This document shows, one piece after another, positions 4,444 through 55,672 of a stretch of 64,000 nt of DNA. The first letter of the stretch is position 1, and every line of letters starts with the position of its first letter. Below the pieces are notes generated by a model. The model was not told the DNA's origin. It made no database searches and worked only from the letters and a program-made list of their open reading frames with translations. Made by a program: the position numbers and the translations under genes. Source of the DNA: Candidatus Kapaibacterium sp. (GTDB lineage: Bacteria > Bacteroidota > Ignavibacteria > OLB7); NCBI GenBank assembly GCA_035539855.1, contig DATLHO010000169.1:23883-87882 (forward strand), in the 5' to 3' direction.

Positions 4444-5241
4444 ATGAAGATCACCGTCCTCGGAAGCGGCACTTCCTCCGGCGTCCCCACTGTCGGCTGC
4501 ACCTGTCCGACCTGTACCTCCGAAGATCCGCGCGACAACCGCCTCCGCACGTCCATCTGGATCCAGAGCCGGGGCACGAGCGTGGTCATCGACACGTCGA
4601 ACGACTTCCGGGCGCAATGCCTGCGAGCCGGCATCCGGTCGCTCGACGCGGTCGTCTACACCCATCATCACTTCGACCACATCGCGGGCTTCGACGACAT
4701 CCGCGCGTTCAACTTCATTCAGCGACAGCCGATGCAGATCTACGGCATGCCCGAGACTCTGGGCACGATCCGGAGGATCTTCGACTACGCGTTCCGCCAG
4801 TGGGGACCCCGCGAGAGCAGCGCACCGGTCGTGCAGGATCACGAGATCCTCGACGAGCCGTTCGAGATCGGGCACGTCGCGCTGCAGCCGTTGGAGCTGC
4901 GGCACGGCGGGATGCGCGTCAACGGCTATCGGGTCGGTTCCTTCGCTTACTGCACCGACTGCAACGCGATCTCCGAGCGCGGGCGAGAACTCCTGCAGGG
5001 CATCGATGTTCTCATCCTGGACGGCCTCCGCCCGACGCCGCATCCGACGCACTTCACGATCGACGAGGCCGTCGAGACAGCCCGGGAGATCGGCGCCCGG
5101 ATGACGTATCTGACGCACATCGCCCATGACCTGAAACACGAGGAGGCGAGTCGTAGTCTTCCTCCCGGAGTGGAGCTCGCCTACGACGGGCTCGAGATCG
5201 ACCTTCCGGATCCGTCGCCGTCGGAGGCGACCCCGAGATAA
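4444..5241 (+). CDS. MBL-fold metallo-hydrolase (PhnP/RNase-BN-like)
   Basis: MKITVLGSGTSSGVPTVGCTCPTC…VVYTHHHFDHIAG: HxHxDH metal-binding motif and N-terminal Cys cluster typical of PhnP-like MBL proteins. Confidence 0.8.
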   Translation: MKITVLGSGTSSGVPTVGCTCPTCTSEDPRDNRLRTSIWIQSRGTSVVIDTSNDFRAQCLRAGIRSLDAVVYTHHHFDHIAGFDDIRAFNFIQRQPMQIYGMPETLGTIRRIFDYAFRQWGPRESSAPVVQDHEILDEPFEIGHVALQPLELRHGGMRVNGYRVGSFAYCTDCNAISERGRELLQGIDVLILDGLRPTPHPTHFTIDEAVETAREIGARMTYLTHIAHDLKHEEASRSLPPGVELAYDGLEIDLPDPSPSEATPR

Positions 5242-5316
5242 CGCTTGATTCATTCGGTCCGCACGCGTAAAATTGTAGACTGACGCAGACTCCATATGGG
5301 CAGACCAGGGACCTCA

Positions 5317-5730
5317 ATGATGAAACGCCGCGCAGTACACCTCACGCTCGCCATGCTGGCCATCGTCGCCACCGCGACGGCGAGTCAAATCGTCTTCTCA
5401 TATCTCCGCGCCGTCCCGCAGAACGATGACATCGTCGTCCAGTGGCGGTCGATGAATGAAACCGGCATCCAGTACTTCGAGATCGATCGCAGCAGCGATG
5501 AGCTCCCGGAGTTCCGTCGCCTCGAGCGCGTCGTCGCGAAGGGTGGAGGCAGCACCTACAGCTTCACCGACAACGGCGCGTTCTACAAGCCGTCGACCGG
5601 CAAGCGCTTCACCTACCGTGTCCGCGCCATCGGCAACACCGCCGAGCCGTATTCCGCGACGACCACGGTCGTCCACGAAGTCTCGAGCGTCAAGCGCTCG
5701 TGGGGCATGATCAAGGAGCTCTTCCGCTAG
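5317..5730 (+). CDS. Hypothetical secreted protein
   Basis: MMKRRAVHLTLAMLAIVATATA signal-peptide-like N-terminus. No recognised domain. Alternative start at 5296. Confidence 0.5.
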   Translation: MMKRRAVHLTLAMLAIVATATASQIVFSYLRAVPQNDDIVVQWRSMNETGIQYFEIDRSSDELPEFRRLERVVAKGGGSTYSFTDNGAFYKPSTGKRFTYRVRAIGNTAEPYSATTTVVHEVSSVKRSWGMIKELFR

Positions 5731-14403: not shown

Positions 14404-14964
14404 GTGACGACATCGAAAAGCAGGGTAGACCGGCACGCGTCCGCCTCCGACGACGAGCTGCTGCGTCTGATCGCCGAGGGCCATAAACAGGCATTCATAC
14501 GCCTGTACGACCGGTACCGAGGCGCGCTGTTCACGTACTGCTGCCGAATGCTCGGCGACCGTGAGCGCGCGAAGGACGCCCTTCAGGAGGCATTCACAAA
14601 AGCCTACCAGAACGCGGGGATGTACCGGCCCGGGACGAATGTCTCGGCGTGGCTCTACCGACTCACACGCAACGTCTGCATCGACCTTCTGCGCGCCCGC
14701 CGCGAGCACGAGGTGATCGACGACATGCAGCTGCCGGCGCGCGAGGTCGAACAGGACGTTCTCCTGCAGGACGTGCTGACCGAGGAGATCGAAAAGCTCC
14801 CGGAGATCTATCGTGAGGCAGTCATCCTCCGCGATGTACAAGGGCACAGCTACGACGAGATCGCAACGATCACGGGCACCGCGATCTCGACGGTCAAGTT
14901 CCGAATCTTCAAGGGACGCGACACGCTCCGGCAACGGCTTGCCGCATATCTCGAGAACCAATGA
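14404..14964 (+). CDS. ECF (sigma-70 family group 4) RNA polymerase sigma factor
   Basis: GTG start. Region 2 (LIAEGHKQAFIRLYDRYRGALFTYCCRML, …NVSAWLYRLTRNVCIDLLR) and region 4 (YREAVILRDVQGHSYDEIATITGTAISTVKFRIFKGRDTLRQ). Confidence 0.85.
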   Translation: MTTSKSRVDRHASASDDELLRLIAEGHKQAFIRLYDRYRGALFTYCCRMLGDRERAKDALQEAFTKAYQNAGMYRPGTNVSAWLYRLTRNVCIDLLRARREHEVIDDMQLPAREVEQDVLLQDVLTEEIEKLPEIYREAVILRDVQGHSYDEIATITGTAISTVKFRIFKGRDTLRQRLAAYLENQ

Positions 14965-37985: not shown

Positions 37986-39860
37986 ATGATGTCCGTCGCA
38001 AGTGTCCTCTCCCGGCCCTTACGCATCGCGCGGATCGGTTTTTCGGTCGCGCTGGGTGCCGCTGTGCTGCCGGTTATTACCGCCGCCCAACAGTCATCGA
38101 TCGACCCGCTTGCGCCGGGTGCCTGTCAGATCTCTCCGAGTGGTACGCTCGAGGGGTGGCTTCCGGCGGCCGGTGCGGTGACCGAAGAATACGGCCGAGG
38201 GGTCTTTGCTGTCGGTGATGCGAACGGCGACGGTCTTGGCGACTGGGTCATCGAGCATTATTTGTCTGACACGCTATACGCCAACCCTAGAAGCGGAGTC
38301 AAGAACTACGGTAACGAACTGCTTCTCTACTACGGTGTAGAAGGAGGCCACCCTGCCGCGCGCTCAGGTCGCCGTCTCGGGCCAACAGAACGATCGACGT
38401 TGAGTACTTTTCTTGGCGCCGGTGACTGGGACGGAGACGGTCATCGCGACGTCGTGTTGTTTGAGCACAGTTTATTCGATACCAGCTCGGGCAACGTCCG
38501 CGAATCGGTGATTGGCAACGTCGTCACTTACTGGGGCAACGCTTCCGGTGCGTTGTCGAACGACGACACGACGCGTCTCTCCTGCGGCGTCGAGTGGTGG
38601 ATAGAGCCACAGTGGATCGATGGCCGCCTCGGCCAGGACGCCGACGGAGACGACATCGACGATCTCGCGATCATCTCGCCCAACGATGGCTTCGCCGACG
38701 GCAGCCGGCGTCCGATCCCACGACTTCATGTGTTCACCGGCGGCCGCACACGCTGGCGGGGCAAACCCGGCGCCAATCGAGCCTCGACGGTCATATGGAA
38801 TCTGCCCGATATCGGTCTCGATCGCTGGATCGCGGGACAGTGGATCGACCACGACCGTGACGGCGCCCTCGACCTCGCTCTGCGCTACGACGTCTATGCA
38901 TCACCGGCTTCGGTTGCCGTCGTGTACGGGCGCCGCGGAGGAGAGCTCGATTCCACCGCGATGGAGTCGCTCACGCTGAGCGGCGATAGCATCGGGTACT
39001 CGCCAAGGTTCATCGACGTGACCGGCGATCGGGTGCCGGAGCTCGTCATGGCCACCGGCGAGCTCTCGACGATCCGCATCTACCTCGGACTTCGTGGCCA
39101 GCGGCTCAAGAAACAGTTCGGCTCCGGTCTGGAGCCTCCGAATCCCGGCGCTGCGGAGTACTGGGGGCGACCTTGGGCACAGATCATGTTGCCGCGAGCC
39201 CTGTCGCCCGATTGGCCGTTCGGTGGGTACGGTCCGATCTTCGATCTCGGAAATCTTGGTCGCGACGATGTCGACGATATCGCTTCGTTCGCGCGACCCT
39301 ACATCACTGTCTACAACGGAGGCAACCGCCTCGACAGCCTAGTCGACGGTTTGGTCGACGTGCCGGAGACCGACATGCTTCCCGGATTTTTCCGCAACGT
39401 CGTCTGCCGTCTCGGCGACATCGACGGAAGCGGTGTCGAGACGATCGCGGTCGGCTTCGGCGGCGCGAAGTACGAAGGCTCCTACCGGCATGGAGCGGTG
39501 CTGTTCTTCAAGCCGAGCTGGTGCGTGCCGCGCGAAGGACGCTACCGCGAACTGCCGCCCGGCACCGATCGACCCGCCCTGGTCGACGAAAAGGCGCTCG
39601 CGGCCGCGGCAGGCGACGAACTCGAATTCTCGATCTCACCGGTTCCCTCCGATGGACCGATCACTGCGCGCTGGGCTCCGCGTGCCGGCGCGGCAGTCAT
39701 CACCGTGAGTGACGCACTCGGCCGCGTCGTGTATCGAAGCGCATCGTCATTGATGCTCGCGAGCACGAGCGTCGACCTCGCCGGGTTGCGTCCTGGAACG
39801 TACCTCGTCACCCTGACCACCGGTCAGCTCCGCAGCTCCCGCCCCCTCGTCGTTCGATAA
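37986..39860 (+). CDS. Secreted FG-GAP/VCBS-repeat protein with T9SS-type C-terminal sorting domain
   Basis: Signal peptide. Repeated Ca-binding-like DxDxDG motifs (GDANGDGLGDWVI, GDWDGDGHRDVVL, DADGDDIDDLAII, DHDRDGALDLAL, GDIDGSGVETIAVG). CTD …ELEFSISPVPSDGPITARW…VITVSDALGRVVYRS…GLRPGTYLVTLTTGQLRSSRPLVVR. Confidence 0.75.
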   Translation: MMSVASVLSRPLRIARIGFSVALGAAVLPVITAAQQSSIDPLAPGACQISPSGTLEGWLPAAGAVTEEYGRGVFAVGDANGDGLGDWVIEHYLSDTLYANPRSGVKNYGNELLLYYGVEGGHPAARSGRRLGPTERSTLSTFLGAGDWDGDGHRDVVLFEHSLFDTSSGNVRESVIGNVVTYWGNASGALSNDDTTRLSCGVEWWIEPQWIDGRLGQDADGDDIDDLAIISPNDGFADGSRRPIPRLHVFTGGRTRWRGKPGANRASTVIWNLPDIGLDRWIAGQWIDHDRDGALDLALRYDVYASPASVAVVYGRRGGELDSTAMESLTLSGDSIGYSPRFIDVTGDRVPELVMATGELSTIRIYLGLRGQRLKKQFGSGLEPPNPGAAEYWGRPWAQIMLPRALSPDWPFGGYGPIFDLGNLGRDDVDDIASFARPYITVYNGGNRLDSLVDGLVDVPETDMLPGFFRNVVCRLGDIDGSGVETIAVGFGGAKYEGSYRHGAVLFFKPSWCVPREGRYRELPPGTDRPALVDEKALAAAAGDELEFSISPVPSDGPITARWAPRAGAAVITVSDALGRVVYRSASSLMLASTSVDLAGLRPGTYLVTLTTGQLRSSRPLVVR

Positions 39861-39888
39861 CTCCTTCCGCAACGAGTTCGAGTTAGCC

Positions 39889-42800
39889 ATGACACCCCAC
39901 CCGCGATTCACCTCGGGCCCATTGGCCCTATTCCTCTTTGTTGTGTTTCTCGCGCCATCGTCCGGCAAGGCGCAATCGAGCGGACGCTACCGCAATTTCC
40001 ATTACGACTCCACGTTCCACATCGGCAGCCATAACCTCAGCCTCGTCAGGCTCGCGAAGGACACGATCGGCTTCGATTTCAATTACAACTACGCCGCCGA
40101 CCTGGCCGGCATCCGCGCACTGCTGAACACGCCCGACAGTCTGCTCACCTGGGGCCAGATCTACGAGAAGCGATACTATCTAGCAGCCGACACATGCTCG
40201 TTCGGGCTCATTTTCACACCGAGCCGCTTCAAAGCGCTGGAGGGGGAGAGCAGCGATGGCGCGCAGGGGGGTAGCTTTCGATGCCAGGACAATTACGTTC
40301 GTGGGGACGCCAACCTGCAGCTCCTCGACTATGCCGACGCGCCGCCCGCAAGTGGTATCTGGGCTAGCGCCATCGACGGTCAGGTAAGCGCTCTGGAGAT
40401 TCCGAAACTCGCTTCGCCTGTGAATCAGACAATCATAACGATGCCCCGGTATGTGTCGACTCTAGGACTTCACCTGCCAAGCACGAAATTCTACGACAGC
40501 GCTACGATGGGTGACCATCACCTGGGACCGGACAGCCTCCGGTATCGATTCAAGATCGGTTTCCATATCGTAGCTCCGGACATCATTGAAGTCGATCCGA
40601 CAGACACGATTGCGTACGCCACGTTCTATCAGCGTGTCGATACGTTGCAGGGTCAGGAAAGCACGGACTGCCGCTGCCGGATCTATGAGCCGTTCGAAAC
40701 GCTCGTCGTCACGCGAGCCACATACTTAGACAATGACCTTTCACCGCTGGTTGGTGGGGTTGAAGGCAATTACCGGGACGTTAGTAGGTGGATCGATATC
40801 CGCGGCGGGTGGTACCATCCCGCGCCGGGCCAGTCGTTTCGGTCACGCCTCGGAGACTGGCTTGGAAGCCTCAATGCAGGTCCATGCACATCCATCGGCC
40901 CGCAGCGCACCTGTGCCTCGCTTCTGCTGTGGCTCCGCGACACACTACAGATCCTGGACCCCGGCTCGCTGTCACTTTCAGACGATGCCCTTGAATCCGA
41001 TCTGATCTTTAGCTTCACCACGACACGCCGCACGAAAATCAGGTACCTCAGAAGCCGTGTATCGTCGCACGCGTTCGAGGCGCTCCAGGCCGGTACACTT
41101 GACGACTGGCTGAAGGAGGAGATCGCTCTCTTTTACACGGACAGCGTTCTCGCCCCCATGCGGCGGCAACTCCTACGCTTCGGCGTTTACGACGAACCGC
41201 ACTGGCCGATGTATCCGGCGAACCGACTGCTCGCGCTCAAGCTCCAGGACTTCATCGAGGACGACAGCGCGGGCGACCGCCGCGGTCTCTTCCAGAACCC
41301 TACTACTAGCTTCGACAGTTATCGCACGTTTCTCGGTGATCTGAATCCCAACCAGCGCAAGGCCATTCACCAGATGTCGCGTCAGCTCTTCAACGTCATC
41401 GGGGGGCCCGTGCCGGTGCGATATGCCAACCCCGATTTCATGGATGATGCGGCCCTCGAGTCATTCTACGCGCCGAATGGCACCGCGGGCTTTCCCAAGA
41501 TGATAGCGCTGACCTCGCCGACTGATTACCAGGCGTATCTCTATCGCACGCAGAAGTACGCCTTCGGTAAGTATTTCGACCACAACAATAACGACCTGCC
41601 TGACTCCGCCCAGACGACAGTCAAAGGCGCCCTCGTTCCAATGCTCGGTCGCTTGGTCGACGTCGGCAGATTCAAGTATCAGAATCGCGTTCGCGACAGC
41701 GTTCCGATCTGGAACGTCGTGCAGACGTCGGGCTGGCTTCCCGAAGCCGGCAACGTGGAGGATACGCTCGGGTACCGCGGCCTATGGTCGCAGCGGCTCG
41801 TCACGCCTGAAGAGGTGGCGGCTCAATGCTGGCTCTCGCTCAACGCGGGCGTCCAGGGTCTCGAATTCCAGGAGCCGGCGTTCGACGGGCCGAACGTCGG
41901 CTACGTCGATCAGTTCCTTGGGACCGGCCGCGTCAAATGGGCGCTACCGTTCGATTCGCTCGGCAACGGCGAGTATGACACCGCCACAGCGAGCCATAGC
42001 AAGTTTTGGGAGGGGACGCCGAAAACTCAGTGGCGATTCCCGAAGATGTGGCTCGGCTTTCGTACGCGGTATCTCGCAGTCAAGCGTATCATCGCCGAAC
42101 TCCGCAGAATCGATACCGTCTACTCGAGATTGTACTATCGCAAAGAGCAGATCTCAATTTTCGATACGCGGCAATCCCTCGACACGTTCCCGTTGGTTCA
42201 GTCACTGCAGACGCGGCTTGCGCGACGATTCCCGAACAGCAGCGGCGGCTTTGGCGATTCAACAGTGGTCGATGCGCGCGATTCGACCTATCTCGAGCTG
42301 ACACATCTCTATCCGGGTCCGCGTGATACCGTCGCCTTCCGTCGCGGTGCACGATATCTGGTTCTGACGAATCGCCGCACGTGGCCGATCGATACGCTCA
42401 CGTACTCCAGCCGCACGACCCAGTACGGATCTGCGACGCGCGGTTATGGAAACATCGACGTCCGCCGGCCCCTCGTCGTCCTCAAGAACACGACAGGAGT
42501 CATTGCCGACAGTTTCTTCGTCGAGAAGGTCGGCTACGAGTCGACAACAAGGGACACGGCACGCTTCGGGGACACCGTCGTCCTCGGCTGGCTCGAGCCT
42601 GGCTGGGGAGCACTGTATCGAATCACGCCGTTGCCGAGCGGAGTCTCACAGGGCGGCACCTCGTACAACAACGTCATTCACAGCATCAATCCGTCGACTC
42701 GTGACAGCGTTTGCGATCGCCTCGTCGTCTACGAGAAGGACTCGATCGTCTACCTGCGTGCGGTCGATTCGACCGGCAAATGGAGTCGCCCGTGGCGTAT

Positions 42801-45000
42801 CAGTGATACAACCGACATTCGTGACAGCTCGTCGCCGTGGCTGCCGCGCGCCAGGAATTTCCATCCGGCCGTCGCCGTCACGCCCGGCGGGACGTCGGCA
42901 CTCGTGGTCTGGGAGCGCTGGCACGTCGATTCCTCCGCCGCCTCCGTCGAGGCCTTATGGATCGAGAGCCGGCCGAAGGCATCGGCCGCCAACATCGGCG
43001 ACAGCATTCGATTCCATGTCACGCGCGACCGCCTCAGGACGAATCCCCTCGATACGTTGGGTTTCGCTCCGGCGGCCATCGGAATTGACGGAGGCTATGT
43101 CATTGCCTATGCGACCGGCAACGAGCATGGGATGAGCCTGACGGTATTGCAGGACCAGCCGTATGGCCTCGTCTCCGGCACAACGAACGATACGGCGAGC
43201 GCGCATGCCATCTGCTGGAACTGCCAGGGCACGGCGTTGCCACCCCTGATCGACAGCACGTCGTACTTCCCCACGCTCGCCTACGTTCGCAACGAGGGCA
43301 TCGTCCCGTTTGTCAATCATTGGCGGTGGTGTGGGACCGGTCCTGGCGACTCGATCGTTCCCTCGAACATGTCGGCGCATGTCGTACACCTCGCCTACCA
43401 GCAGGGTAGGCTGCACCTTGCCAACGCGCAGTACATCATGTACAACCAGGCGGCGATCACGTTTCGGCAGAACCAGTTCCCCTCCTATCCACCCGCGATC
43501 TGGATCTCGCCGACGGAGCACGTTAGTGCGGGACTTCCCGGGTGCGGCTTCCTTCATCCTTCGATCGCCGCCGACTCGGTGCTGACCGGCGTAGCGTTCC
43601 AGGCGCACTCGAGCGCTCGCCGGCGCGTCGTGCTACGCTTCCGAGACACGCTGACGTTCCCGGTCTTCAAGGCAACGTGGAAAACGCCAACATATGCCTG
43701 GGCAGAGCGGAGCACCGATTGGTACGAATGGCCCTCCGCAACGCAATTCCCGGCCCTGCCAATGACGGCACTCAGAGGTGCGACCGGCGGGCCCAAGGGA
43801 GGTATCGTCTGGTATCATTCCAACGACACAACGGGCGTTACGCCACAGTATCTCTATCGCTACGGCTATGCGGCGGTCGAGAGAATTCCGAACGGCCAGT
43901 ATCCAACGCTGACGCTCGTTCCGTTTCTCGATACGCTTCCATTTGAATCGTCCAGCATCTTCTATCGAGGGGATACCTCGTCACAATATCTGGGACCGCG
44001 ACCCGGCCTTACGACCGGCACATACTATCCGGCCGCTCTGTTGAACACAGGCACTACCCGATCATCCCTGTTCCGCACAGCAGTTGAGGACAACATCGTA
44101 CACGGTGTCGATATCCGGACGATTTCGGAGCGCAACTGCTCACCTTTTGCCATCCGTGATCGTGATATCAAGGCGGGCCTCTTGACGATGACAACCATCA
44201 CAGAGACCGGGGAGGTCGCGACGTCGGCGACGACGCCGGGGCTTCCTCCGTCGTTCTTTGCCGAACCGATCAACGACAACACGGTGGTCGAATCGCTCGA
44301 GCAATCGGAGCGAGTTGCACGGACGAGTGTCTTTGCGACCACGGCGATCAATCAAGCGATTCGCCGGCAGGTCTCACGCGCGAGCAACGTGATGTCGTGG
44401 CTTGATGGCGAGCCCTACGACAGTGTGCTTCAGCGCGACGCGGACGTTTGGGTACTCACGGAACTCGTACGTGCGGCCGACAGCGTCGTGCTATGGCACG
44501 ACGATACGATCTCCGTTCGCGCGATGACGGTCGACTCACTCGACGAGAGCGTCGAGGTACCGACGAGTACCTACGCGGCACCCAACACGCCTGTCTTCGT
44601 GCGCCTGCGCGTCGAGGCGACCGAGGGTCTCGCGTACGTTCTATCGGCTGGCTTCGAGTGGTCCCGCACGGGACCGCCTTTCACACCTAAGCCAGGCAGG
44701 CGCTTCAAGCAGCGGCAGAATGTACTGGACGCTGGTAGCGAACTGTCGGTTATGGTTCATCCAATTCCGGCTTCGGAGGAACTGCAGATATCGGTTCTCT
44801 CGAAATCATCGGGCCGACTGACGTACATGCTGCGAGACAACCGGGGGTTAGCCGTCGGCGCGCCCGGCACAACCACGGTCTCGGCGGATCGCCCGGCAAT
44901 CGTTCCGTACGATCTGCGGGATGTTCCGAGCGGAAGCTACTATCTCGAGGTCACCGTTAACGGCAATCGCGTCGTCACGAAGGTCTCCGTGCTCCGTTGA
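39889..45000 (+). CDS. Giant secreted protein of unknown function (1703 aa) with T9SS-type C-terminal sorting domain
   Basis: Signal MTPHPRFTSGPLALFLFVVFLAPSSGKAQ. W/Y-rich, no recognised catalytic motif. C-terminus …ELSVMVHPIPASEELQISVLSKSSGRLTYMLRDNRG…SGSYYLEVTVNGNRVVTKVSVLR fits the CTD consensus. Begins 29 nt after the FG-GAP gene, so likely co-transcribed. Confidence 0.75.
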   Translation: MTPHPRFTSGPLALFLFVVFLAPSSGKAQSSGRYRNFHYDSTFHIGSHNLSLVRLAKDTIGFDFNYNYAADLAGIRALLNTPDSLLTWGQIYEKRYYLAADTCSFGLIFTPSRFKALEGESSDGAQGGSFRCQDNYVRGDANLQLLDYADAPPASGIWASAIDGQVSALEIPKLASPVNQTIITMPRYVSTLGLHLPSTKFYDSATMGDHHLGPDSLRYRFKIGFHIVAPDIIEVDPTDTIAYATFYQRVDTLQGQESTDCRCRIYEPFETLVVTRATYLDNDLSPLVGGVEGNYRDVSRWIDIRGGWYHPAPGQSFRSRLGDWLGSLNAGPCTSIGPQRTCASLLLWLRDTLQILDPGSLSLSDDALESDLIFSFTTTRRTKIRYLRSRVSSHAFEALQAGTLDDWLKEEIALFYTDSVLAPMRRQLLRFGVYDEPHWPMYPANRLLALKLQDFIEDDSAGDRRGLFQNPTTSFDSYRTFLGDLNPNQRKAIHQMSRQLFNVIGGPVPVRYANPDFMDDAALESFYAPNGTAGFPKMIALTSPTDYQAYLYRTQKYAFGKYFDHNNNDLPDSAQTTVKGALVPMLGRLVDVGRFKYQNRVRDSVPIWNVVQTSGWLPEAGNVEDTLGYRGLWSQRLVTPEEVAAQCWLSLNAGVQGLEFQEPAFDGPNVGYVDQFLGTGRVKWALPFDSLGNGEYDTATASHSKFWEGTPKTQWRFPKMWLGFRTRYLAVKRIIAELRRIDTVYSRLYYRKEQISIFDTRQSLDTFPLVQSLQTRLARRFPNSSGGFGDSTVVDARDSTYLELTHLYPGPRDTVAFRRGARYLVLTNRRTWPIDTLTYSSRTTQYGSATRGYGNIDVRRPLVVLKNTTGVIADSFFVEKVGYESTTRDTARFGDTVVLGWLEPGWGALYRITPLPSGVSQGGTSYNNVIHSINPSTRDSVCDRLVVYEKDSIVYLRAVDSTGKWSRPWRISDTTDIRDSSSPWLPRARNFHPAVAVTPGGTSALVVWERWHVDSSAASVEALWIESRPKASAANIGDSIRFHVTRDRLRTNPLDTLGFAPAAIGIDGGYVIAYATGNEHGMSLTVLQDQPYGLVSGTTNDTASAHAICWNCQGTALPPLIDSTSYFPTLAYVRNEGIVPFVNHWRWCGTGPGDSIVPSNMSAHVVHLAYQQGRLHLANAQYIMYNQAAITFRQNQFPSYPPAIWISPTEHVSAGLPGCGFLHPSIAADSVLTGVAFQAHSSARRRVVLRFRDTLTFPVFKATWKTPTYAWAERSTDWYEWPSATQFPALPMTALRGATGGPKGGIVWYHSNDTTGVTPQYLYRYGYAAVERIPNGQYPTLTLVPFLDTLPFESSSIFYRGDTSSQYLGPRPGLTTGTYYPAALLNTGTTRSSLFRTAVEDNIVHGVDIRTISERNCSPFAIRDRDIKAGLLTMTTITETGEVATSATTPGLPPSFFAEPINDNTVVESLEQSERVARTSVFATTAINQAIRRQVSRASNVMSWLDGEPYDSVLQRDADVWVLTELVRAADSVVLWHDDTISVRAMTVDSLDESVEVPTSTYAAPNTPVFVRLRVEATEGLAYVLSAGFEWSRTGPPFTPKPGRRFKQRQNVLDAGSELSVMVHPIPASEELQISVLSKSSGRLTYMLRDNRGLAVGAPGTTTVSADRPAIVPYDLRDVPSGSYYLEVTVNGNRVVTKVSVLR

Positions 45001-48366: not shown

Positions 48367-48972
48367 CTAGCGAAGATCGCGTCCGTCGCCCGAAGCGTCG
48401 CTGCTGGCGTCGACGGAAGGAGCTAACGGAGCGATCGCCTCGGTCGAATCGGGAACCGCATCCTGCGCCGCCACTTCACCCATTTCGGGAGCCGGCATGA
48501 GTCCGCCCATGATGACCGAGTATCCGTTGTCGTCCTCGTCGGGGGGCGGCTCGCGATCTGCCTGGGTCGTGTCGCTCGTCTCCTCGGTGACCGGCGCCAT
48601 CTTCCCCATGATCGGATCGAGCGAGCTCGACGACGCCTCGACGCCGAACGCGCCCGCGACGAGCGCCGTGGCCGCCGCGATCATCGAGCGGACGCGTCGC
48701 ATCCGGCTGTCGCGCACCGCACGGACGCCGACGGGACAATCCCGTGTCAGCACGGTTCCGTCGGCCCGACGATGCAGGCGCACGCAGACGCGGCCCTCGC
48801 GCGCGGCGATGAGCTCCTCGGCCTCGCGGCGCGTCATCGCCGAGAGGTCGTAGACGTTGAGCTGGCATGATCCGCAGAAGCGCGCGCGGTCGTCGCCGCT
48901 CATGGCGCTCCAGTCGGCGGAGCAGGGCGTGGCGATGGCGATCGTGTCCAGAGGTGATGTGGCTCGTTCCAT
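48367..48972 (-). CDS. Hypothetical Cys-rich protein (putative zinc-ribbon N-terminus, one TM, acidic C-terminal tail)
   Basis: PCSADWSAMSGDDRARFCGSCQLNVYDLS (C-x10-C-x2-C…), then TM MIAAATALVAGAFGV and D/E/S-rich tail. Start MERATSPLD preferred over the extended ORF to 49083. Confidence 0.45.
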   Translation of the reverse strand: MERATSPLDTIAIATPCSADWSAMSGDDRARFCGSCQLNVYDLSAMTRREAEELIAAREGRVCVRLHRRADGTVLTRDCPVGVRAVRDSRMRRVRSMIAAATALVAGAFGVEASSSSLDPIMGKMAPVTEETSDTTQADREPPPDEDDNGYSVIMGGLMPAPEMGEVAAQDAVPDSTEAIAPLAPSVDASSDASGDGRDLR

Positions 48973-49130
48973 GGTGCTGGTCCGCGTTGGTTGTCGTTCC
49001 TCGCCCGGAACAGACCCGGGTAGAGAGAAAACGTGCGCGCGCGATTCTGTGACATCGGCCGCCGATACCGAAGCGTCTCGCATCCTTACGGGCGTATTGC
49101 GATGTTTGCGGTTTTCAATCCCGACGTCCC

Positions 49131-49586
49131 ATGCTCGCTGATACCTTTCGCATCCACAACCGGATCAATCTCTACCTGCTCGCGGCGATCGCGCCGGAGT
49201 CGCTCGATGACGGAGCGACGATGAAGGGGCGGACCGTGGGCGAGACGTTCGCGCATCTTCACAACGTCCGCCTGATGTGGATCAAGGCCGCGGCGCCCGA
49301 GCTCCTCGACGGGCTCGAGAAGATCGAGCGCGAGCGCGCCCACGATCCGGCGCTCCTTGCGGAGGCGCTCGAGCGCTCGGGCGAGGCGATCGCGACGCTG
49401 CTCGACAACGCGGCGGCGGCGGGAGGCAGAGTCAAGGGATTCAAGCCGCACGCGACGGCGTTCCTCGGCTACCTCATCGCCCACGAGGCGCACCATCGCG
49501 GACAGATCGCGCTACGCCTGAAGGCCGCGGGCACGCCGCTCGACAGGAAAACGTCGTACGGGATGTGGGAGTGGGGGAGCCGCTAG
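49131..49586 (+). CDS. DinB-family (DinB_2-like, metal-dependent four-helix bundle) protein
   Basis: …ETFAHLHNVRLMW… and C-terminal YLIAHEAHHRGQIALRLK His-triad pattern of the DinB/YfiT superfamily. Confidence 0.7.
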   Translation: MLADTFRIHNRINLYLLAAIAPESLDDGATMKGRTVGETFAHLHNVRLMWIKAAAPELLDGLEKIERERAHDPALLAEALERSGEAIATLLDNAAAAGGRVKGFKPHATAFLGYLIAHEAHHRGQIALRLKAAGTPLDRKTSYGMWEWGSR

Positions 49587-49661
49587 CGGGCTGCGTCCTT
49601 TCGCGCGGGCCGTCGTCCATACGGACGACGAGCGTCTCACAGAACCCAACAGCGGTACCCG

Positions 49662-50219
49662 ATGCACACGACGACCCAGATCTGGAACGAATACAACGCG
49701 AAGCTCCACGCCTTCATCGTCCGGCGTGTGAGCGATCGCTCGACGGCCGACGACATCCTTCAGGACGTCTTCCTGAAGACGCATCGGCGGTTGCACGAGC
49801 TCAAGGACGGAGCGAAGCTGCAGAGCTGGCTCTACCAGATCGCGCGCAACGCGATCATCGATCACTACCGCGAGCGGCGTCTGTCGACCGAGTCGCTCGA
49901 AGAGCTGCCTGCCGACGGACCGGACGCGAGCGATGCCGCGGTGCGCGAGCTGGCCGAGTGCCTGCGTCCGATGATCGAGCAACTGCCGGATCACTACCGC
50001 GACGCCCTGATTCTCGCCGACCTCGACGGCATGACCCAGCGAGAGATCGCCGAGCGTCACGGCATCTCGCTCTCCGGCTCGAAGTCGCGCGTGCAGCGAG
50101 CGCGCACGATGCTCCGCGATCAGCTCGACGCCTGCTGCCGCTTCGAGTTCGACCGGCGCGGCAGCGTCGTCGGCTACACACCGCACGCGTGCGCAGACGA
50201 CTGCGAGAGCGACTGCTGA
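49662..50219 (+). CDS. ECF sigma factor with Cys-rich C-terminal extension (CorE-like / ECF44-type)
   Basis: Sigma region 2 (DILQDVFLKTHRRLHELKDGAKLQSWLYQIARNAIIDHYR) and region 4 (YRDALILADLDGMTQREIAERHGISLSGSKSRVQRARTMLRDQL) followed by CCRFEFDRRGSVVGYTPHACADDCESDC. Confidence 0.8.
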   Translation: MHTTTQIWNEYNAKLHAFIVRRVSDRSTADDILQDVFLKTHRRLHELKDGAKLQSWLYQIARNAIIDHYRERRLSTESLEELPADGPDASDAAVRELAECLRPMIEQLPDHYRDALILADLDGMTQREIAERHGISLSGSKSRVQRARTMLRDQLDACCRFEFDRRGSVVGYTPHACADDCESDC

Positions 50220-50315
50220 AATCTCTGCGTCCTTTTCGCGACCGCTCCGTCTCCGTTGGTGAGCATGGCACGACGCCATGCGCCATACACGACATCAACT
50301 CTCGAGAAACGAACG

Positions 50316-51104
50316 ATGGAACAGTTGACGAGCGACGAGATCCGCACCGCGGTGCGTGAGAATTACGGGAAGGTGGCGGACAGCGGATGCGGCTGCGGGC
50401 CCTCGTGCTGCGAGCCGAGCGCGCCGCTGGACCTTGCGGCGCAGTCGAGGGCGCTGGGATATTCCGACGAGGAGATCGCGGCGGTTCCCGAGGGCGCGAA
50501 CCTCGGGCTCGGCTGCGGCAACCCGCAGGCGATCGCCGCGATGAAGCCGGGCGAGACCGTGCTCGATCTCGGCAGCGGCGCCGGCTTCGACGCGTTCCTC
50601 GCGGCGACCGCGGTCGGCCCAACCGGTCGCGTGATCGGAGTGGACATGACCCCGTCGATGCTCGCGAAGGCGCGCGAGAACGCCGCGAAGTCCGGCCGCA
50701 CGAACGTCGAGTTCCGACTCGGCGAGATCGAGCAGCTCCCGGTCGCCGACGCGACCGTCGATGTCATCATCTCCAACTGCGTCATCAACCTGTCGCCGGA
50801 GAAGGGGCGCGTCTTCAACGAGGCCTACCGCGTGCTTCGCGCGGGCGGGCGCCTGGCGATCTCCGACGTCGTCGCGACGGCCGAGCTGCCGGCGTCGATC
50901 AGGGGCGACCTGGCGCTGTACTCCGGCTGCGTCGCCGGCGCCTCGACGATCGACGAGCTCGAGGCGATGATGCACGCCGCCGGCTTCACCGACATCGTCA
51001 TCGCGCCGAAGGACACCAGCCGCGAGTTCATCCGCGAATGGGCTCCCGGAACGAAGATCGAAGACTACGTGGTCTCGGCGACAATCGAGGCGAGGAAGAA
51101 GTAG
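50316..51104 (+). CDS. arsM: Arsenite S-adenosylmethionine methyltransferase
   Basis: SAM motif VLDLGSGAGFD. Conserved Cys residues (GCGCGPSCCE, …ISNCVINLS…, …LYSGCVAG…). N-terminus MEQLTSDEIRTAVRENYGKVA matches ArsM starts. Alternative starts at 50256/50265. Confidence 0.85.
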   Translation: MEQLTSDEIRTAVRENYGKVADSGCGCGPSCCEPSAPLDLAAQSRALGYSDEEIAAVPEGANLGLGCGNPQAIAAMKPGETVLDLGSGAGFDAFLAATAVGPTGRVIGVDMTPSMLAKARENAAKSGRTNVEFRLGEIEQLPVADATVDVIISNCVINLSPEKGRVFNEAYRVLRAGGRLAISDVVATAELPASIRGDLALYSGCVAGASTIDELEAMMHAAGFTDIVIAPKDTSREFIREWAPGTKIEDYVVSATIEARKK

Positions 51105-51305
51105 CGATCGGATCCGGTGATCAGCAACGAAACGATGAGCGCGGGGGAAGGCCGATGGGCCTTCCCCCGCGCTCGGTTTGGGTCGACCCTGTCGACCGTC
51201 ATAGCTGCTGGAGACAATTCGCAATACCTTGTCGCGTGCATCGGGCAGTGTGTCCCGATGCACCCAGGTGTCAAAGCATACCGCAGATCCCATTGAGGGG
51301 CGATC

Positions 51306-52979
51306 ATGAGATTCGATAGGGCATGGATTCGCACGTCGGCCATGTGGCGCCTGAAGCGGCCTCTCGGCCGCCGGCTCTCCGTCGCGGTCCTACTCGGACT
51401 GGCTGCGTCTCTCCTGGTCGCTCCGGCCAACGCGCAGGTCGGTGAAATCCTCGCCAGCCCCGGTCCGGTCAAGCTGCGCCTGCTCTGGGCGCGCACGAGC
51501 ACCGAGGCCGGGACCGGGATCGGAACCGGTCTGGCGGCGATTCCCGATATCGACGGTGATGGCCGCGACGAGGTGCTGATTGGCACACTCGTTCCACAGG
51601 AGCTGCGATTGTACCATGGAGAGAGTACCGGACTGCGGCTCGATGAGGAATGGCGACTCGTGGGCGAATTCGCATGGCGAGGCACTACCGCGAATCCGGA
51701 CCTTTTCGGCGACGGGCGCCGGTTTGTCATGCTTGTTGGCGGCGCCAGTGAGCTTCATTTCTACCCGATCGACTCGGGCCGCATCGCAATGACGCCGACG
51801 ATGATCTGGCCGGCGACGCGCGCTGATTCACCGGGAATACGAGGCGCTCTGAGCGACTTCGCGGTCGCCGATCTAAATGGCGACGGCGCTGACGAACTGA
51901 TCGCCTTCATTGGGTTCATACGGGGCGCACCGGAGCCGCACCACTCGCAGGTCTGGATCTACCAGGGAGGCCCGAACTTCCAGCTCGATATGCCGACGAC
52001 CGTTCTGCGGGAAACAATCGCGGAGTTCGGCTACTCGCCGAAAGGCGGCGTCGGGGACTTCGACGGTGACGGTCACGTCGATATCGGGATGCTACAGATA
52101 CCGACGAAGAGCGGAGGGAACCATCTGATGTTCTGGTTCGGCGATGGACAACTTCCGGCGGACGGAGCGCACCCTGATCGCTCGGTCAATGTCGAGTACG
52201 GGTCGTGGCGCGCGGTCAATGTCGACGGCGACGGCGTAAGCGATATTCTCACGGATCAGTTTGTGTTCCACACTGCCAGCGGCAAGGACGCACGCATGCG
52301 GACGTTCGACGTGACGGACGCCGACCTGATGCTGTCTCAGAACCGCTATTTCCTGCAACACTTCGGTCCGATGAACAACCGCGCGGGTCGCTACGACATG
52401 GTCGGCACGACGGCATACGACGTCGTCAATGGCGGCCAGCTTCGCGCGTTTTCCGGTGGACCGAACGGACCCGACGCGACATACGATGCAGTGTTCTACG
52501 AGTCCGACCATGGATTCTTCGAAAGCCCAAGCGGCTATAATATGCCTGCGGGCGACGTCAACGGGGATGGCTGGTCAGATTTCCTCGCCGGCAATCCCAG
52601 ATACTACGACGACACTGACCGCGGAGCCGTCATAGTTCTCGCCGGCGGTCCATACATCCCGGTCGACGACCCGTCGATGGGCGTGCGCGAGGTCGTCACC
52701 GGCGAGCGTCCGCGATCGGTGTACATCTGGCCGATGCCGGTCGGCGATGAATTGAACATCGCCTGGCGCGGCGACCTCGAACGCATGCCCGCGCGCTTCA
52801 AGGTCTTCGATGTCGGAGGTGGGCTGGTCGCCCGAGGTGCGGTCGATCCGTATGTCGGCTCGGCGCACTGGCGCTGCGGCGATGCTCCGCCGGGCGCGTA
52901 TGTGCTCCGCGTGCTCGACGAAGACGGCGGGCTGCTTGGAACGGCGTCGTTCGTCAAGCGATCGATCCCCCCACTCTGA
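51306..52979 (+). CDS. Secreted FG-GAP/VCBS-repeat protein with T9SS-type C-terminal sorting domain
   Basis: Signal. DxDGDG repeats (IPDIDGDGRDEVLIG, ADLNGDGADELIAF, VGDFDGDGHVDIG, NVDGDGVSDIL, GDVNGDGWSDFLAG). CTD …SVYIWPMPVGDELNIAW…FKVFDVGGGLVARG…PGAYVLRVLDEDGGLLGTASFVKR. Confidence 0.75.
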   Translation: MRFDRAWIRTSAMWRLKRPLGRRLSVAVLLGLAASLLVAPANAQVGEILASPGPVKLRLLWARTSTEAGTGIGTGLAAIPDIDGDGRDEVLIGTLVPQELRLYHGESTGLRLDEEWRLVGEFAWRGTTANPDLFGDGRRFVMLVGGASELHFYPIDSGRIAMTPTMIWPATRADSPGIRGALSDFAVADLNGDGADELIAFIGFIRGAPEPHHSQVWIYQGGPNFQLDMPTTVLRETIAEFGYSPKGGVGDFDGDGHVDIGMLQIPTKSGGNHLMFWFGDGQLPADGAHPDRSVNVEYGSWRAVNVDGDGVSDILTDQFVFHTASGKDARMRTFDVTDADLMLSQNRYFLQHFGPMNNRAGRYDMVGTTAYDVVNGGQLRAFSGGPNGPDATYDAVFYESDHGFFESPSGYNMPAGDVNGDGWSDFLAGNPRYYDDTDRGAVIVLAGGPYIPVDDPSMGVREVVTGERPRSVYIWPMPVGDELNIAWRGDLERMPARFKVFDVGGGLVARGAVDPYVGSAHWRCGDAPPGAYVLRVLDEDGGLLGTASFVKRSIPPL

Positions 52980-53024: not shown

Positions 53025-54134
53025 CTACCCCGACTCGTACAACGTGATCGCCGACGTCTTGACGATGATGAACAGCTCGGTGCCCGGCGCGCTGTGAAGC
53101 TCGGCGACCGCCTCGGCGGTGACCTCGGCGACGATCGGCGGCGCGTCGCCGGCGAGGCGCGCGGTGATCAGACGCAGAGCCCCGACCGCCTCGACGCTCT
53201 CGACGCGCGCGGCGATGATGTTGCGCGCCGACAGCAGCCGCGGGCGCTCGAGCGCGAGCGTGATCTCGGCCGCGGGAATGCTGAGCATGACGTGCGATCC
53301 CGGCGCGACGCTCGCGCGCGGCACCGTCATCGTCGGCCCGTCGTCGGCGCTTCCAACGCGCACAATGCTCGTCTCGTCGCGGTTGTCGACGATGACCGCG
53401 GGCACGACATTCTCGAAGCCCTCCGCCTCCGCCAGCGGGAAGACCTCCGGCCGCGTCAGCACGGCGCGTGGCTCCCCGCGCGCGATCACCCGACCTTCGC
53501 GCAGCACGACGAGGTCCTCGCAGAGCGCCATCACCTCGACGGGATTATGCGACACGACGAGCATCGGCAGGGCGAACTCGCGCTGCATGCGGTAGAGGAA
53601 CGGCAGCACCTTGCGGCGCAGCGCGACGTCGAGCGCGGCGAGCGGCTCGTCCAGGAGCATGAGGTCGGGTCCGGAGCAGAGCGCGCGCGCGAGCGCGACG
53701 CGCTGGCGCTCACCGCCGGAGAGGGTCGTCGCGCGCTGATCGAGCAGGCGCTCGATGTCGAGCACGCGCACGGCGGCGGCGAAGATCCCGTCGAAGTCGT
53801 GGCCGGTCGCGATCGCGCGGGCGCGGCCGGCGCGCAGGTTCTCGCGCACGTCGAGGTGCGGAAACAGCAGCGAGTCCTGCGGTACGTAGCCGATGCCGCG
53901 CCGCTCGGGCGCGAGCCAGACGCGCCGTTCGGTGTCGAGCCAGTCGACGTCGCCGAAGCGCACGACGCCTCGCGCGCCGCGGCGCAGCCCCGCGACGGTC
54001 TCGAGCAGCGACGTCTTGCCGGAGCCGCTGACGCCGAAGATGCCGGTGACGCGATGGGTCGTGGCGATGTCGATCTCGAGCGCGAAGCGATCGAGTGGCA
54101 GCGCGATGTCGATGGAGAGGATGGGCTGGGACAT
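53025..54134 (-). CDS. modC: Molybdate ABC transporter ATP-binding protein ModC (with C-terminal TOBE/Mop domain)
   Basis: Walker A GVSGSGKTS. Signature LSGGERQRVALARAL. Walker B LLLDEP. C-terminal Mop-like region. Start MSQPILS (54132-54134) overlaps the modB stop (TGATG). Confidence 0.85.
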   Translation of the reverse strand: MSQPILSIDIALPLDRFALEIDIATTHRVTGIFGVSGSGKTSLLETVAGLRRGARGVVRFGDVDWLDTERRVWLAPERRGIGYVPQDSLLFPHLDVRENLRAGRARAIATGHDFDGIFAAAVRVLDIERLLDQRATTLSGGERQRVALARALCSGPDLMLLDEPLAALDVALRRKVLPFLYRMQREFALPMLVVSHNPVEVMALCEDLVVLREGRVIARGEPRAVLTRPEVFPLAEAEGFENVVPAVIVDNRDETSIVRVGSADDGPTMTVPRASVAPGSHVMLSIPAAEITLALERPRLLSARNIIAARVESVEAVGALRLITARLAGDAPPIVAEVTAEAVAELHSAPGTELFIIVKTSAITLYESG

Positions 54135-54796
54135 CAGACCGGCATCCTCCGTCGACCGAGCACGGTCGTGATCCACATGACGACGAACGCGACGCCGAGC
54201 AGCACGAGCGCCGAGCGATTGGCCGCGGCGTAGTTCATCGATTGCACGTTGTCGTAGATCGCGATCGACAGCGTGCGCGTCGTGCCGGGAATGTTGCCGC
54301 CGACCATGAGCACCACGCCGAACTCACCGAGCGTGTGCGCGAACGTCAGCACCAGCGACGCGAGCAGTCCCTGCCAGCTCAGCGGCAGCGTCACGGTGAA
54401 GAACGTCTTGAGCCGTCCGTTGCCGAGCGTCCGCGACATGTCGATGAGCCGGCGATCGACGCTCTCGAAGCCGGCGACGAGCGGGCGCACCGCGAACGGG
54501 ACGTTGAAGATGATCGAGGCGATGAGGATGCCGCCGAAGCTGAACGGAAGCATCCCGCCGGTGAGCTCGTGATAGACGGCGCCGAACGGACCGTTCGGTC
54601 CCATCGCCATCAGCAGGTAGAACCCGACGACCGTTGGCGGCAGCACCAGCGGCAGCGCGATGATCGCCTCGAGCACGGTCTTGCCGCGCCACTTCGTCAT
54701 GGCGATCCAGTGCGCCAGCGGAACGGCGAACAGGAAGAGGATGCCCGCGGTCGAGAGCGCGAGCCGGGTCGTCAGCGCTATTGCGTCCCAGTCCAC
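54134..54796 (-). CDS. modB: Molybdate ABC transporter permease ModB
   Basis: Five TM helices. EAA-like loop …SRTLGNGRLKTFFTVTLPLSWQG. ModB-type sequence throughout. Confidence 0.9.
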   Translation of the reverse strand: MDWDAIALTTRLALSTAGILFLFAVPLAHWIAMTKWRGKTVLEAIIALPLVLPPTVVGFYLLMAMGPNGPFGAVYHELTGGMLPFSFGGILIASIIFNVPFAVRPLVAGFESVDRRLIDMSRTLGNGRLKTFFTVTLPLSWQGLLASLVLTFAHTLGEFGVVLMVGGNIPGTTRTLSIAIYDNVQSMNYAAANRSALVLLGVAFVVMWITTVLGRRRMPV

Positions 54797-54799
54797 TGG

Positions 54800-55663
54800 C
54801 TACTCGCCGGGAATGATGAATCCGTACGAGCGCAGCACCCGACGGCCGTCGGCTCCGCTCATGTACGCGACGAGCTTCGCGGCCGCCTCGGGTTCGTGCG
54901 CGCGCGAGAGAATGATCCCGCCCTGCTCGAGCCGCGGATACGCGTCGAGCGGTACCGGCCAGTACGTCCCCTTGTCGCGCATCGACGGCGCCATCGCCAG
55001 CGACAGCGCGATGATGCCGACGTCCGCCGCGCCCGACTCGATGAACTGCGCGGTCTGCGCGATGTTCTCCCCGAGGACGAGCCGATCCTTCACCGCATCG
55101 TAGACCCCGAGCGACTTCATCGCGGCCTCGGCGGCGCGTCCGTACGGCGCGTGCTCGGGATTGGCGATGGCGATCTTCCCGATCTCCGGCGAGCGCAGCG
55201 CCTCGATCCCCTTCCCCTTGACGTCGACGCCCGAACCGGACGGCGCCCAGAGCACGATCTGTCCATCGGCGTAGTGAAAGAGCGAGCTGCTGTCGGCATG
55301 TCCGGCCGCCGCGAGCTTGCGCGGGTACACGATATCGGCCGAGAGAAAGACATCGAACGGAGCGCCGTTCGACAACTGCGAGAAGAAGTTCCCCGATGAG
55401 CCGTACGAGACCTTCACCTCGATCGAGGGATCGACCGTCCTGAACGCCGCGACGATCTCGTCGAGCGCGAACTTCAGGTCCGACGCCGCGGCGACCGTGA
55501 CGTGGCGCGTCGCGGCGGTATCCGGAGACGTCGTCGCTGCGCCATCGGCGGCGTCGCGTGCGTCACCGCCGCAGCCGACGATGATGGTCGACAGGAGAAC
55601 GAGAGCCGCGCAGCCGAGAAACAGCCGGGCGAGACGAGCGAGAATGCTATGGATCATCGGCAT
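54800..55663 (-). CDS. modA: Molybdate ABC transporter substrate-binding protein ModA
   Basis: Lipoprotein-type signal (…LSTIIVGCGG). VSYGSSGNFFSQLSNGAPFDVFLSAD anion-binding-site region typical of ModA. Confidence 0.85.
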   Translation of the reverse strand: MPMIHSILARLARLFLGCAALVLLSTIIVGCGGDARDAADGAATTSPDTAATRHVTVAAASDLKFALDEIVAAFRTVDPSIEVKVSYGSSGNFFSQLSNGAPFDVFLSADIVYPRKLAAAGHADSSSLFHYADGQIVLWAPSGSGVDVKGKGIEALRSPEIGKIAIANPEHAPYGRAAEAAMKSLGVYDAVKDRLVLGENIAQTAQFIESGAADVGIIALSLAMAPSMRDKGTYWPVPLDAYPRLEQGGIILSRAHEPEAAAKLVAYMSGADGRRVLRSYGFIIPGE

Positions 55664-55672
55664 GTCGTCGGT

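Follow-up and report, generated by a model that had tools for sequence, protein, structure and literature searches.

The stretch of DNA analysed here, which we refer to as the window, comprises 64,000 nucleotides (64 kb) of contig DATLHO010000169.1 from Candidatus Kapaibacterium sp. and contains three consecutive open reading frames (ORFs), all on the plus strand: a dinB-family gene, a gene for a sigma factor of the extracytoplasmic function (ECF) type and arsM, encoding a methyltransferase for trivalent arsenic, As(III) (Table 1). An initial annotation had singled out this gene trio and considered the sigma factor a CorE-like protein that might sense metals or metalloids through a Cys-rich tail and control arsenic methylation. 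The gene coordinates given there are correct, and the spacer between the sigma gene and arsM, reported as 97 nt, measures 96 nt (50220-50315). Comparison of this locus with related loci points to a sigma factor of the SigZ family that would transcribe arsM from a dedicated promoter located within this spacer.

Table 1. Position of the genes, predicted promoters and other elements of the sigZ-arsM locus in the window
Feature	Position	Strand	Description
dinB-family gene	49131-49586	+	151 aa; Pfam DinB (PF05163), 46.9 bits against a cut-off of 23
P-sigZ, predicted ECF-type promoter	49592-49617	+	-35 TGCGTC at 49592-49597, 16 nt, -10 CGTC at 49614-49617
SigZ-family ECF sigma gene	49662-50219	+	185 aa; directly 3' of dinB
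Cys-rich C-terminal extension, residues 158-185, CCRFEFDRRGSVVGYTPHACADDCESDC	50133-50216	+	proposed on-board sensor or regulatory module
P-arsM, predicted ECF-type promoter, TGCGTCCTTTT-N11-CCGTCT	50226-50252	+	-35 TGCGTC at 50226-50231, -10 CGTCT at 50248-50252
arsM, As(III) S-adenosylmethionine methyltransferase	50316-51104	+	262 aa; NCBIfam NF008823, 363 bits against a cut-off of 263
GC-rich hairpin, then UCGGUUUGGG	51139-51172	+	34 nt past the arsM stop codon

Besides matching the NCBIfam model, the arsM product can be aligned with two solved ArsM chains, 5evj and 4fr0, the cysteines in GCGNP, SNCVINL and GCxAGA being conserved, and its VLDLGSGAG, GCGNP, SNCVINL and GCVAGA segments match up with 5evj; an S-adenosylmethionine-binding motif and the catalytic cysteines expected of ArsM are thus present. 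A longer version of the ORF, starting with a TTG at 50256, was dropped because it would begin a few nt from the -10 element of the promoter described below; we therefore prefer the ATG at 50316, and homologues of arsM likewise begin with MEQLTS.

A bipartite element, TGCGTCCTTTT-N11-(C)CGTCT, with the consensus TGCGTC(C/T)TTTT-N11-(C)CGTCT, i.e. TGCGTC-N16-CGTC(T), became apparent when the sequences preceding arsM were aligned. The copy in the sigma-arsM spacer, P-arsM, begins 7 nt past the sigma stop codon, ends 63 nt ahead of the arsM ATG and is the single match to the strict pattern in the window, where 0.00 matches were expected. A second copy, P-sigZ, lies between dinB and the sigma gene and ends 44 nt before the sigma start codon. 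When the window was scanned with a position weight matrix (PWM) built from other loci and not from the window copies, P-arsM and P-sigZ obtained the best and second-best scores (30.1 and 24.2 bits), the third-best site reaching 8 bits. The search for an ECF promoter proposed in the initial annotation was thus successful for the spacer and yielded an additional copy in front of the sigma gene, with a -35 element, TGCGTC, that is not of the anticipated GGAAC-like type; no such site was found by the PWM upstream of dinB in the window, a region that had also been proposed for the search. A scan for sigma70-like promoters between 48300 and 51500 detected none.

In its architecture the element resembles canonical ECF promoters, of which the Bacillus subtilis sigma-W promoter TGAAAC-N16-CGTA is an example: it combines a 6-mer -35 element, a T-rich tract following it, a 16-nt spacer and a -10 element of the CGTC/CGTA type. 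It differs from them in the -35 core, which is TGCGTC instead of (G)GAAC or TGAAAC.

The same element recurs far beyond the window. In 885 kb of related loci we found 56 sites, compared to 0.83 in shuffled sequences (maximum 3), most of them within 1 kb of the sigma gene and 53 on the same strand as this gene, with three on the opposite strand. When both window copies are included, the spacing between GCGTC and CGTC is exactly 16 nt in 53 of 58 sites, and positions that were not part of the search pattern are conserved as well, namely a T before GCGTC (55/58) and a T after CGTC (50/58). The element mostly ends ~20-70 nt ahead of the first long ORF. Where arsM adjoins the sigma gene, the motif is found upstream of arsM in 19 of 22 loci and in both gene orders: with arsM 3' of the sigma gene it occupies the spacer, and with arsM first it precedes arsM. 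In the remaining three (L013, L051 and L069), arsM has an ArsR-like gene next to it.

Could the element be the operator of another DNA-binding protein, for instance a tandem-site regulator recognising a CGTC repeat, with the sigma factor as a mere passenger? Indeed, CGTC is present in both half-sites, 21-22 bp or about two helical turns apart. Yet the element is strictly directional, mostly ends shortly ahead of the first long ORF and has the ECF architecture (6-mer, 16 nt, CGTC). A SigZ-type sigma gene lies within 1 kb of most sites, in loci that were selected for the sigma factor, and no other regulator family recurred there. Furthermore, the one clade in which the C-terminus of the sigma factor is altered also has no consensus motif. 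We therefore give hardly any credence to an operator for another protein.

The genes behind the promoter and around the sigma gene are dominated by arsenic detoxification. One genome per species was scanned, giving 80 loci from many phyla, and 59 of these have one or more arsenic genes no farther than 2.5 kb from the sigma gene. The adjacency of sigma gene and arsM, whose conservation had been put forward as a check, holds across phyla: in about 22 of the 80 loci the two genes are immediate neighbours on one strand, in either order. Such pairs occur in Gamma- and Alphaproteobacteria, Ignavibacteriales, Lentisphaerae, Chloroflexi, Acidobacteria and Verrucomicrobia, as well as in Planctomycetota, Myxococcales, Actinobacteria, Fermentibacteria and Bacteroidota. 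A census of neighbours over the 80 loci counted ArsM (21), ArsI/CadI (15), an ArsP-type permease (14), DUF2703 (11), Acr3 (7) and ArsC (6, including one ArsC-ArsN2 fusion). Immediately 3' of the motif we found ArsM in 16-17 loci, DUF2703 (PF10865, 105 bits) in 10 and ArsI/CadI metalloenzymes (NF041414, above cut-off) in six; GshA (in two Vibrionaceae loci), a PatB C-S lyase, a GST-like protein and a few others make up the remaining downstream genes. In a neighbour-joining tree, the type of target tracks the clades of the sigma factor.

Several individual loci illustrate the range of genes that follow the motif. In Aliivibrio logei (L018, 6625-8285) and Photobacterium sp. (L036, 6583-8223) the motif stands just past sigZ and is followed not by an ars gene but by gshA, coding for glutamate-cysteine ligase (TIGR01434, above cut-off). 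A metagenome-assembled genome (MAG) of Verrucomicrobiota (L016, 1559-6674) carries four motif copies within ~5 kb, preceding genes for a PatB-family C-S lyase, DUF2703, a GST-like protein and ArsM, and looks like a small SigZ regulon gathered in one place. The ArsM downstream of the motif in an Ignavibacteriales MAG (L010, 6646-8061) has 471 aa and is fused to a second methyltransferase-like domain. In two metagenome contigs (L087, 4744-5180; L090, 969-1294) a motif divergent from sigZ-arsM precedes a gene for a small Cys/Met-rich membrane protein (MASCMEMMKGMEV...GMCPMAAMF), which may be a further regulon member.

Taken together, the comparison of loci shows a predicted promoter that travels with SigZ-type genes across phyla and fronts arsenic-detoxification genes or, in Vibrionaceae, gshA. 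For the window, transcription of arsM from P-arsM and of the sigma gene from P-sigZ by SigZ-RNA polymerase appears well supported on this comparative basis. The position of P-sigZ in front of the sigma gene implies positive autoregulation, so that initiation at both promoters would establish a positive feedback loop, and arsenite methylation would depend on the sigma factor instead of on derepression by ArsR.

Consistent with this, no arsR was detected in the window. A tblastn search for ArsR gave no match at E<=1e-5, and a profile made from 17 ArsR-like sequences reached a best E of 0.87 against the six-frame ORFs, a negative limited to the 64-kb window. Operons for arsenic resistance and methylation controlled by ArsR/SmtB proteins share their output genes (arsM, acr3, arsC, arsI) with the SigZ-type loci, and presumably their inducer as well. 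The control elements differ in kind: ArsR is a repressor that is released by As(III), whereas in the window it would be a promoter-specificity subunit that needs activation. In several ArsR proteins, Cys clusters that include vicinal pairs serve as As(III) ligands. Our data suggest that, in the absence of the usual repressor ArsR, arsenic defence is switched on by the SigZ family.

The sigma factor itself has the domains that had been ascribed to it. Pfam places Sigma70_r2 at residues 9-73 and Sigma70_r4_2 at residues 99-151, there is no region 3, and the Cys-rich extension consists of the last 28 residues, exactly as first quoted. Both SigZ equivalog models of NCBIfam were passed, NF007215 with 234.6 bits (cut-off 212) and TIGR02959 with 223.8 bits (cut-off 168.65); residues 4-176 align with positions 3-175 of the 181 positions of the SigZ profile, so that the alignment reaches the first part of the extension. 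At E<=1e-10 the protein has 4764 homologues. Like B. subtilis SigZ and the NCBIfam SigZ family, it consists of sigma2 and sigma4 only, followed by a short extension starting with CC, and has no associated anti-sigma factor (for the family, see PMC7826278 and the supplement of its bioRxiv version). For B. subtilis SigZ no signal, regulon or promoter is known (supplement of the bioRxiv version of PMC7826278), whereas the window protein is tied to arsM by the shared promoter.

The published ECF group ECF238 unites SigZ-like proteins (the old ECF24) with CorE-like proteins (the old ECF44, sister of ECF24), and its members have a Cys-rich C-terminal extension of ~20 aa and no anti-sigma factor, for which regulation via the extension has been proposed (PMC7826278). 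The window protein shares these features, with an extension of 28 residues including five cysteines and no associated anti-sigma factor. Its probable membership is based on its matches to the SigZ models and the published merging of ECF24 into ECF238 (PMC7826278). A conserved gene context has been described for one subgroup of ECF238 only, consisting of a permease together with a protein that has a thioredoxin domain (supplement of the bioRxiv version of PMC7826278).

The CorE-type label of the initial annotation therefore holds at the level of the group, ECF238, to which CorE2 also belongs, and not for the type. CorE and CorE2 of Myxococcus xanthus (ECF44; CorE2 is ECF238s15) work as one-component sigma factors, as is also proposed for the window protein: they are regulated by a C-terminal Cys-rich domain, have no anti-sigma partner and adjoin detoxification genes under their control (PMC4937300). 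A CxC motif in their linker is essential (PMC4937300), and according to a later review this motif is confined to the ECF44 part of the group (PMC8999054). We found no CxC between sigma2 and sigma4 in the window protein or in any of 83 SigZ-type relatives; the linker of the window protein contains a single cysteine, C100 (AECLRPMI). The C-terminal cysteines are also arranged differently: CorE2 has six within 15 residues (C169, C173, C174, C178, C181 and C183, i.e. C-x3-CC-x3-C-x2-C-x-C, according to the published positions; PMC4937300), compared to C158, C159, C177, C181 and C185, i.e. CC-x17-C-x3-C-x3-C, in the window protein. Because of the missing CxC and the different Cys spacing, we regard the protein as a SigZ/ECF24-type member of ECF238 and not as CorE-like in the strict sense.

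The same two differences bear on what the protein might sense. By chance, arsM could have as its neighbour a sensor of the CorE/CorE2 type, responding to divalent or redox-active metals (Cu, Cd, Zn), and the common ECF238 affiliation, the Cys-rich C-terminus and the absence of an anti-sigma factor would agree with such a sensor. CorE and CorE2 respond to Cu or Cd/Zn, CorE2 being activated by Cd/Zn through its Cys-rich domain (PMC4937300), and their targets are efflux pumps and oxidases, whereas the predicted target here is arsM. Since the recurrent neighbours are arsenic genes and not Cu/Cd/Zn efflux pumps or oxidases, and since the essential linker CxC and the CorE2 Cys spacing are both missing, we regard a Cu/Cd/Zn sensor as very improbable.

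With regard to the extension, its conservation in orthologues had been named as a test of the sensor idea, and the cysteines are indeed conserved. Over 120 homologues the motif reads CC-x-FEFD-xxG-x(V/I)-x(D/G)(Y/C)-x5-8-C-x2-3-C, and the start typical for the SigZ family, CC-x-(F/L)E(F/L)D, is present in the window protein. Among 47 diverse homologues with 50-83% identity to the window protein, C158, C159 and C181 are invariant and C177 is present in at least 90%. In an AlphaFold2 model of the sigma factor (predicted local distance difference test score, pLDDT, of 82), residues 160-163 and 169-173 of the extension form a beta-hairpin that follows the last sigma4 helix and precedes a disordered tail. 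A Foldseek search of the PDB with this model returned ordinary ECF sigma structures only and no solved SigZ- or CorE-type extension.

No anti-sigma candidate is conserved beside the sigma gene, as had been noted for the locus from the start, and the neighbour census contains no recurrent non-arsenic family that could act as one. The divergent ORF at 48367-49083 on the minus strand, the one neighbour without an assignment, encodes a 238-aa protein in which a Cys motif (C-x15-CxxC...C...C) is followed by a hydrophobic segment and then by an acidic tail. Neither Pfam nor NCBIfam offers a match, and the ORF was found only in near-identical contigs and in L006, being absent from L004 and from the 80 species-level loci; we rejected it as an anti-sigma factor, as it matches no family and shows no co-occurrence with sigZ.

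Vicinal Cys pairs form the As(III) or methylarsenite, MAs(III), sites of AfArsR, CgArsR, SpArsR and ArsI. As the putative regulon is dominated by arsenic genes and vicinal Cys pairs are the usual ligands of As(III) and MAs(III), we infer that the sigma factor is gated by its extension, with trivalent arsenic as the likely ligand. In such a mechanism, for which we are less certain than for the promoters, the 28-residue extension would control the activity of the protein that carries it, and binding of As(III) or methylarsenite by the C158-C159 pair together with C177 and C181, and perhaps also with C100 where sigma4 begins, would generate the transcription-competent form, comparable to the activation of CorE2 by Cd/Zn. 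We thus favour, with moderate confidence, the view that the locus is a self-contained module made up of a Cys-gated SigZ-family ECF sigma factor of the ECF24 branch of ECF238 and its target arsM. Extending this to the whole family is more tentative: SigZ-type ECF sigma factors might be one-component arsenic sensors that bind As(III) or methylarsenite via the invariant CC...C-x2-3-C and only then transcribe from TGCGTC-N16-CGTCT promoters, a generalisation that we find plausible and hold with some reserve.

Cysteines in this arrangement could also respond to something broader than arsenic. Vicinal and CxxC cysteines are classic redox switches, and the extension might sense general thiol-reactive or oxidative stress by a reversible disulfide, with arsenic as one of several inducers. 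The genes for GshA, the GST-like protein and the PatB C-S lyase found behind the motif would fit a response of this kind, as would the DinB-family and VOC/glyoxalase neighbours in the lineage of the window. However, the main partners of the sigma gene are arsenic-specific (ArsM, ArsI/CadI, Acr3, ArsC and ArsN2), and typical oxidative-stress genes, for instance those for thioredoxin reductase, catalase or AhpC, are not among the recurrent neighbour families, which makes a general thiol-stress sensor quite improbable.

The main rival leaves the wiring of sigma factor, promoter and arsM unchanged and questions the role of the extension, which would be merely a structural Zn-binding hairpin on a sigma factor that is constitutively active once made. 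Induction would then enter elsewhere, through control of the synthesis or stability of the sigma factor, be it read-through from dinB, another regulator or simple positive feedback. The predicted fold of the extension, a short beta-hairpin, is compatible with a structural site, and no inducer is known for B. subtilis SigZ (supplement of the bioRxiv version of PMC7826278). On the other hand, an autoregulated sigma factor that is always active would run away unless gated, and the Cys-rich extensions of CorE and CorE2 do gate activity (PMC4937300). Moreover, a clade of betaproteobacterial and Klebsiella proteins has changed the Cys pattern to C...CC and is still found in ars operons, with a variant promoter-like site in the one member, from a Klebsiella plasmid, whose DNA was read; such a change within an arsenic context is more readily explained by a ligand site being tuned than by a structural role that is fixed. 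In our judgement a purely structural Zn site is unlikely, and it is to be taken more seriously than general thiol-stress or Cu/Cd/Zn sensing, both of which are weakened by the neighbour spectrum and the missing CxC.

Several observations weigh against a Cys-gated arsenic module and should be considered together. The CC...C-x2-3-C motif is kept throughout the family, including members that have no arsenic neighbours (21 of the 80 loci, and the Priestia sigZ described below), as would be expected of a site that stabilises the fold; hence the extension could be a structural Zn site and not a ligand sensor. AlphaFold2 is confident for the hairpin only, and the last eight residues, including C181 and C185, have pLDDT values below 50. 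The P-sigZ copy is also present in contigs L001-L003 and is not conserved in L004 and L006, relatives with 65-68% identity, so that autoregulation is not a fixed feature of the locus. Starting from the motif, a scan of metagenomes yielded six exact matches, of which three lie beside sigZ and three are on contigs that showed no sigZ; this supports the link between promoter and sigZ weakly, and the sample is too small for an unbiased regulon. Furthermore, a published analysis of the regions 5' of the sigma genes reports no conserved promoter for ECF238 (supplement of the bioRxiv version of PMC7826278). More generally, all support for the use of the promoters and for arsenic binding is comparative.

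Independent confirmation comes from annotated plasmids. SigZ-like sigma factors were found on 1192 plasmid records, 1016 of them from Klebsiella, with 33-35% identity, and plasmid papers annotate the Klebsiella protein as a hypothetical protein or sig70-like sigma factor. In the one plasmid region in which we read the gene order, that of the Klebsiella pneumoniae plasmid NZ_CP092904.1 (L093), the sigma gene (4962-5507) is located inside arsR-arsH-sigma-arsD, next to a pco copper island. Its product ends in a tail of the form C-x-V-x-V-D...VCC, and the stretch that separates the sigma gene from arsD contains a variant promoter-like element, CGCATC-N16-CGTT. The permease-linked betaproteobacterial clade has neither the CC pair nor the consensus motif. 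A different context is seen on a Priestia megaterium plasmid (L094), where an annotated sigZ has an aldo/keto reductase gene as its neighbour and no arsenic genes, unlike the sigma gene of the window. A weaker site, TTGCATC...CGTC (15.6 bits), at ~3915-3950 on the minus strand of this Bacillus-type SigZ locus is directed away from sigZ towards the aldo/keto reductase gene.

The SigZ family itself and the idea of regulation by its C-terminus are already published. In the literature searched for SigZ or ECF24 together with arsenic or arsM, no paper makes this link; matches concerning Cupriavidus were set aside, as they dealt with ECF243 and not with ECF24. Neither a cognate promoter nor an arsenic regulon was found there, nor a sigma factor in place of ArsR for arsenic methylation. 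The locus in the window therefore appears to exemplify, clearly and compactly, an undescribed variant of regulation in a sigma group that is itself known. SigZ/ECF24 is a large group, with the homologues counted above and occurrence on more than 1000 Enterobacterales plasmids, for which no signal, promoter or regulon is known, and the comparison yields testable predictions for it, namely a promoter consensus, a target set dominated by arsenic detoxification and a candidate ligand site. Regulation of arsenic genes by a route distinct from ArsR would matter for when microbes methylate arsenic in rice paddies and soils, as well as for how ars islands carried by clinical plasmids are switched on. 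On a practical matter, a compact pair of sigma factor and promoter that may be orthogonal and arsenic-responsive could be useful in synthetic biology. If the proposed sensing is correct, direct perception of a metalloid would be shown for a sigma factor for the first time. The arsenic circuit would then be ArsR-independent and activation-based, in use both in bacteria of the soil and in ars operons on Klebsiella plasmids, and the orphan SigZ/ECF24 group would be given a function.

The remaining features of the locus are less closely connected with the sigma factor. The order dinB-(VOC)-sigZ-arsM is retained in contigs L001-L006, in which the sigma factor has 65-99% identity. The dinB product matched no NCBIfam model, and DinB was matched in none of the 80 species-level loci; outside the window, the PWM gave a weak upstream site of 17.7 bits in L006 only. 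As dinB has no promoter copy of its own in the window and is missing from the 80 loci, we rejected it as a regulon member and treat it as a lineage-specific neighbour. Downstream of arsM, the GC-rich hairpin has a minimum free energy of -48.1 kcal/mol (z = -7.1 relative to 200 shuffles) and is the probable end of the arsM transcript; a simple terminator scan did not call it, its T-run being short. An Rfam scan of the window returned zero matches.

Further downstream, a gene for a 557-aa FG-GAP repeat protein (51306-52979, plus strand) separates arsM from genes for a molybdate-type ABC transporter (53025-55672, minus strand). In L004 and L006 arsM directly abuts this transporter, and the FG-GAP gene thus looks like an insertion. 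Two large genes occupy 37986-45000 on the plus strand of the window and encode a 624-aa FG-GAP protein and a 1703-aa protein without any Pfam match. The former has a weak, sub-threshold match to a C-terminal sorting domain of the type IX secretion system (22 bits, the cut-off being 27). If real, this tail and the GC content of 66% would together point to an organism of the FCB group, for instance one of the Gemmatimonadota. A second, unrelated ECF-type sigma factor is encoded at ~14500-14946 on the plus strand and shows 32% identity to the SigZ-type protein in tblastn.

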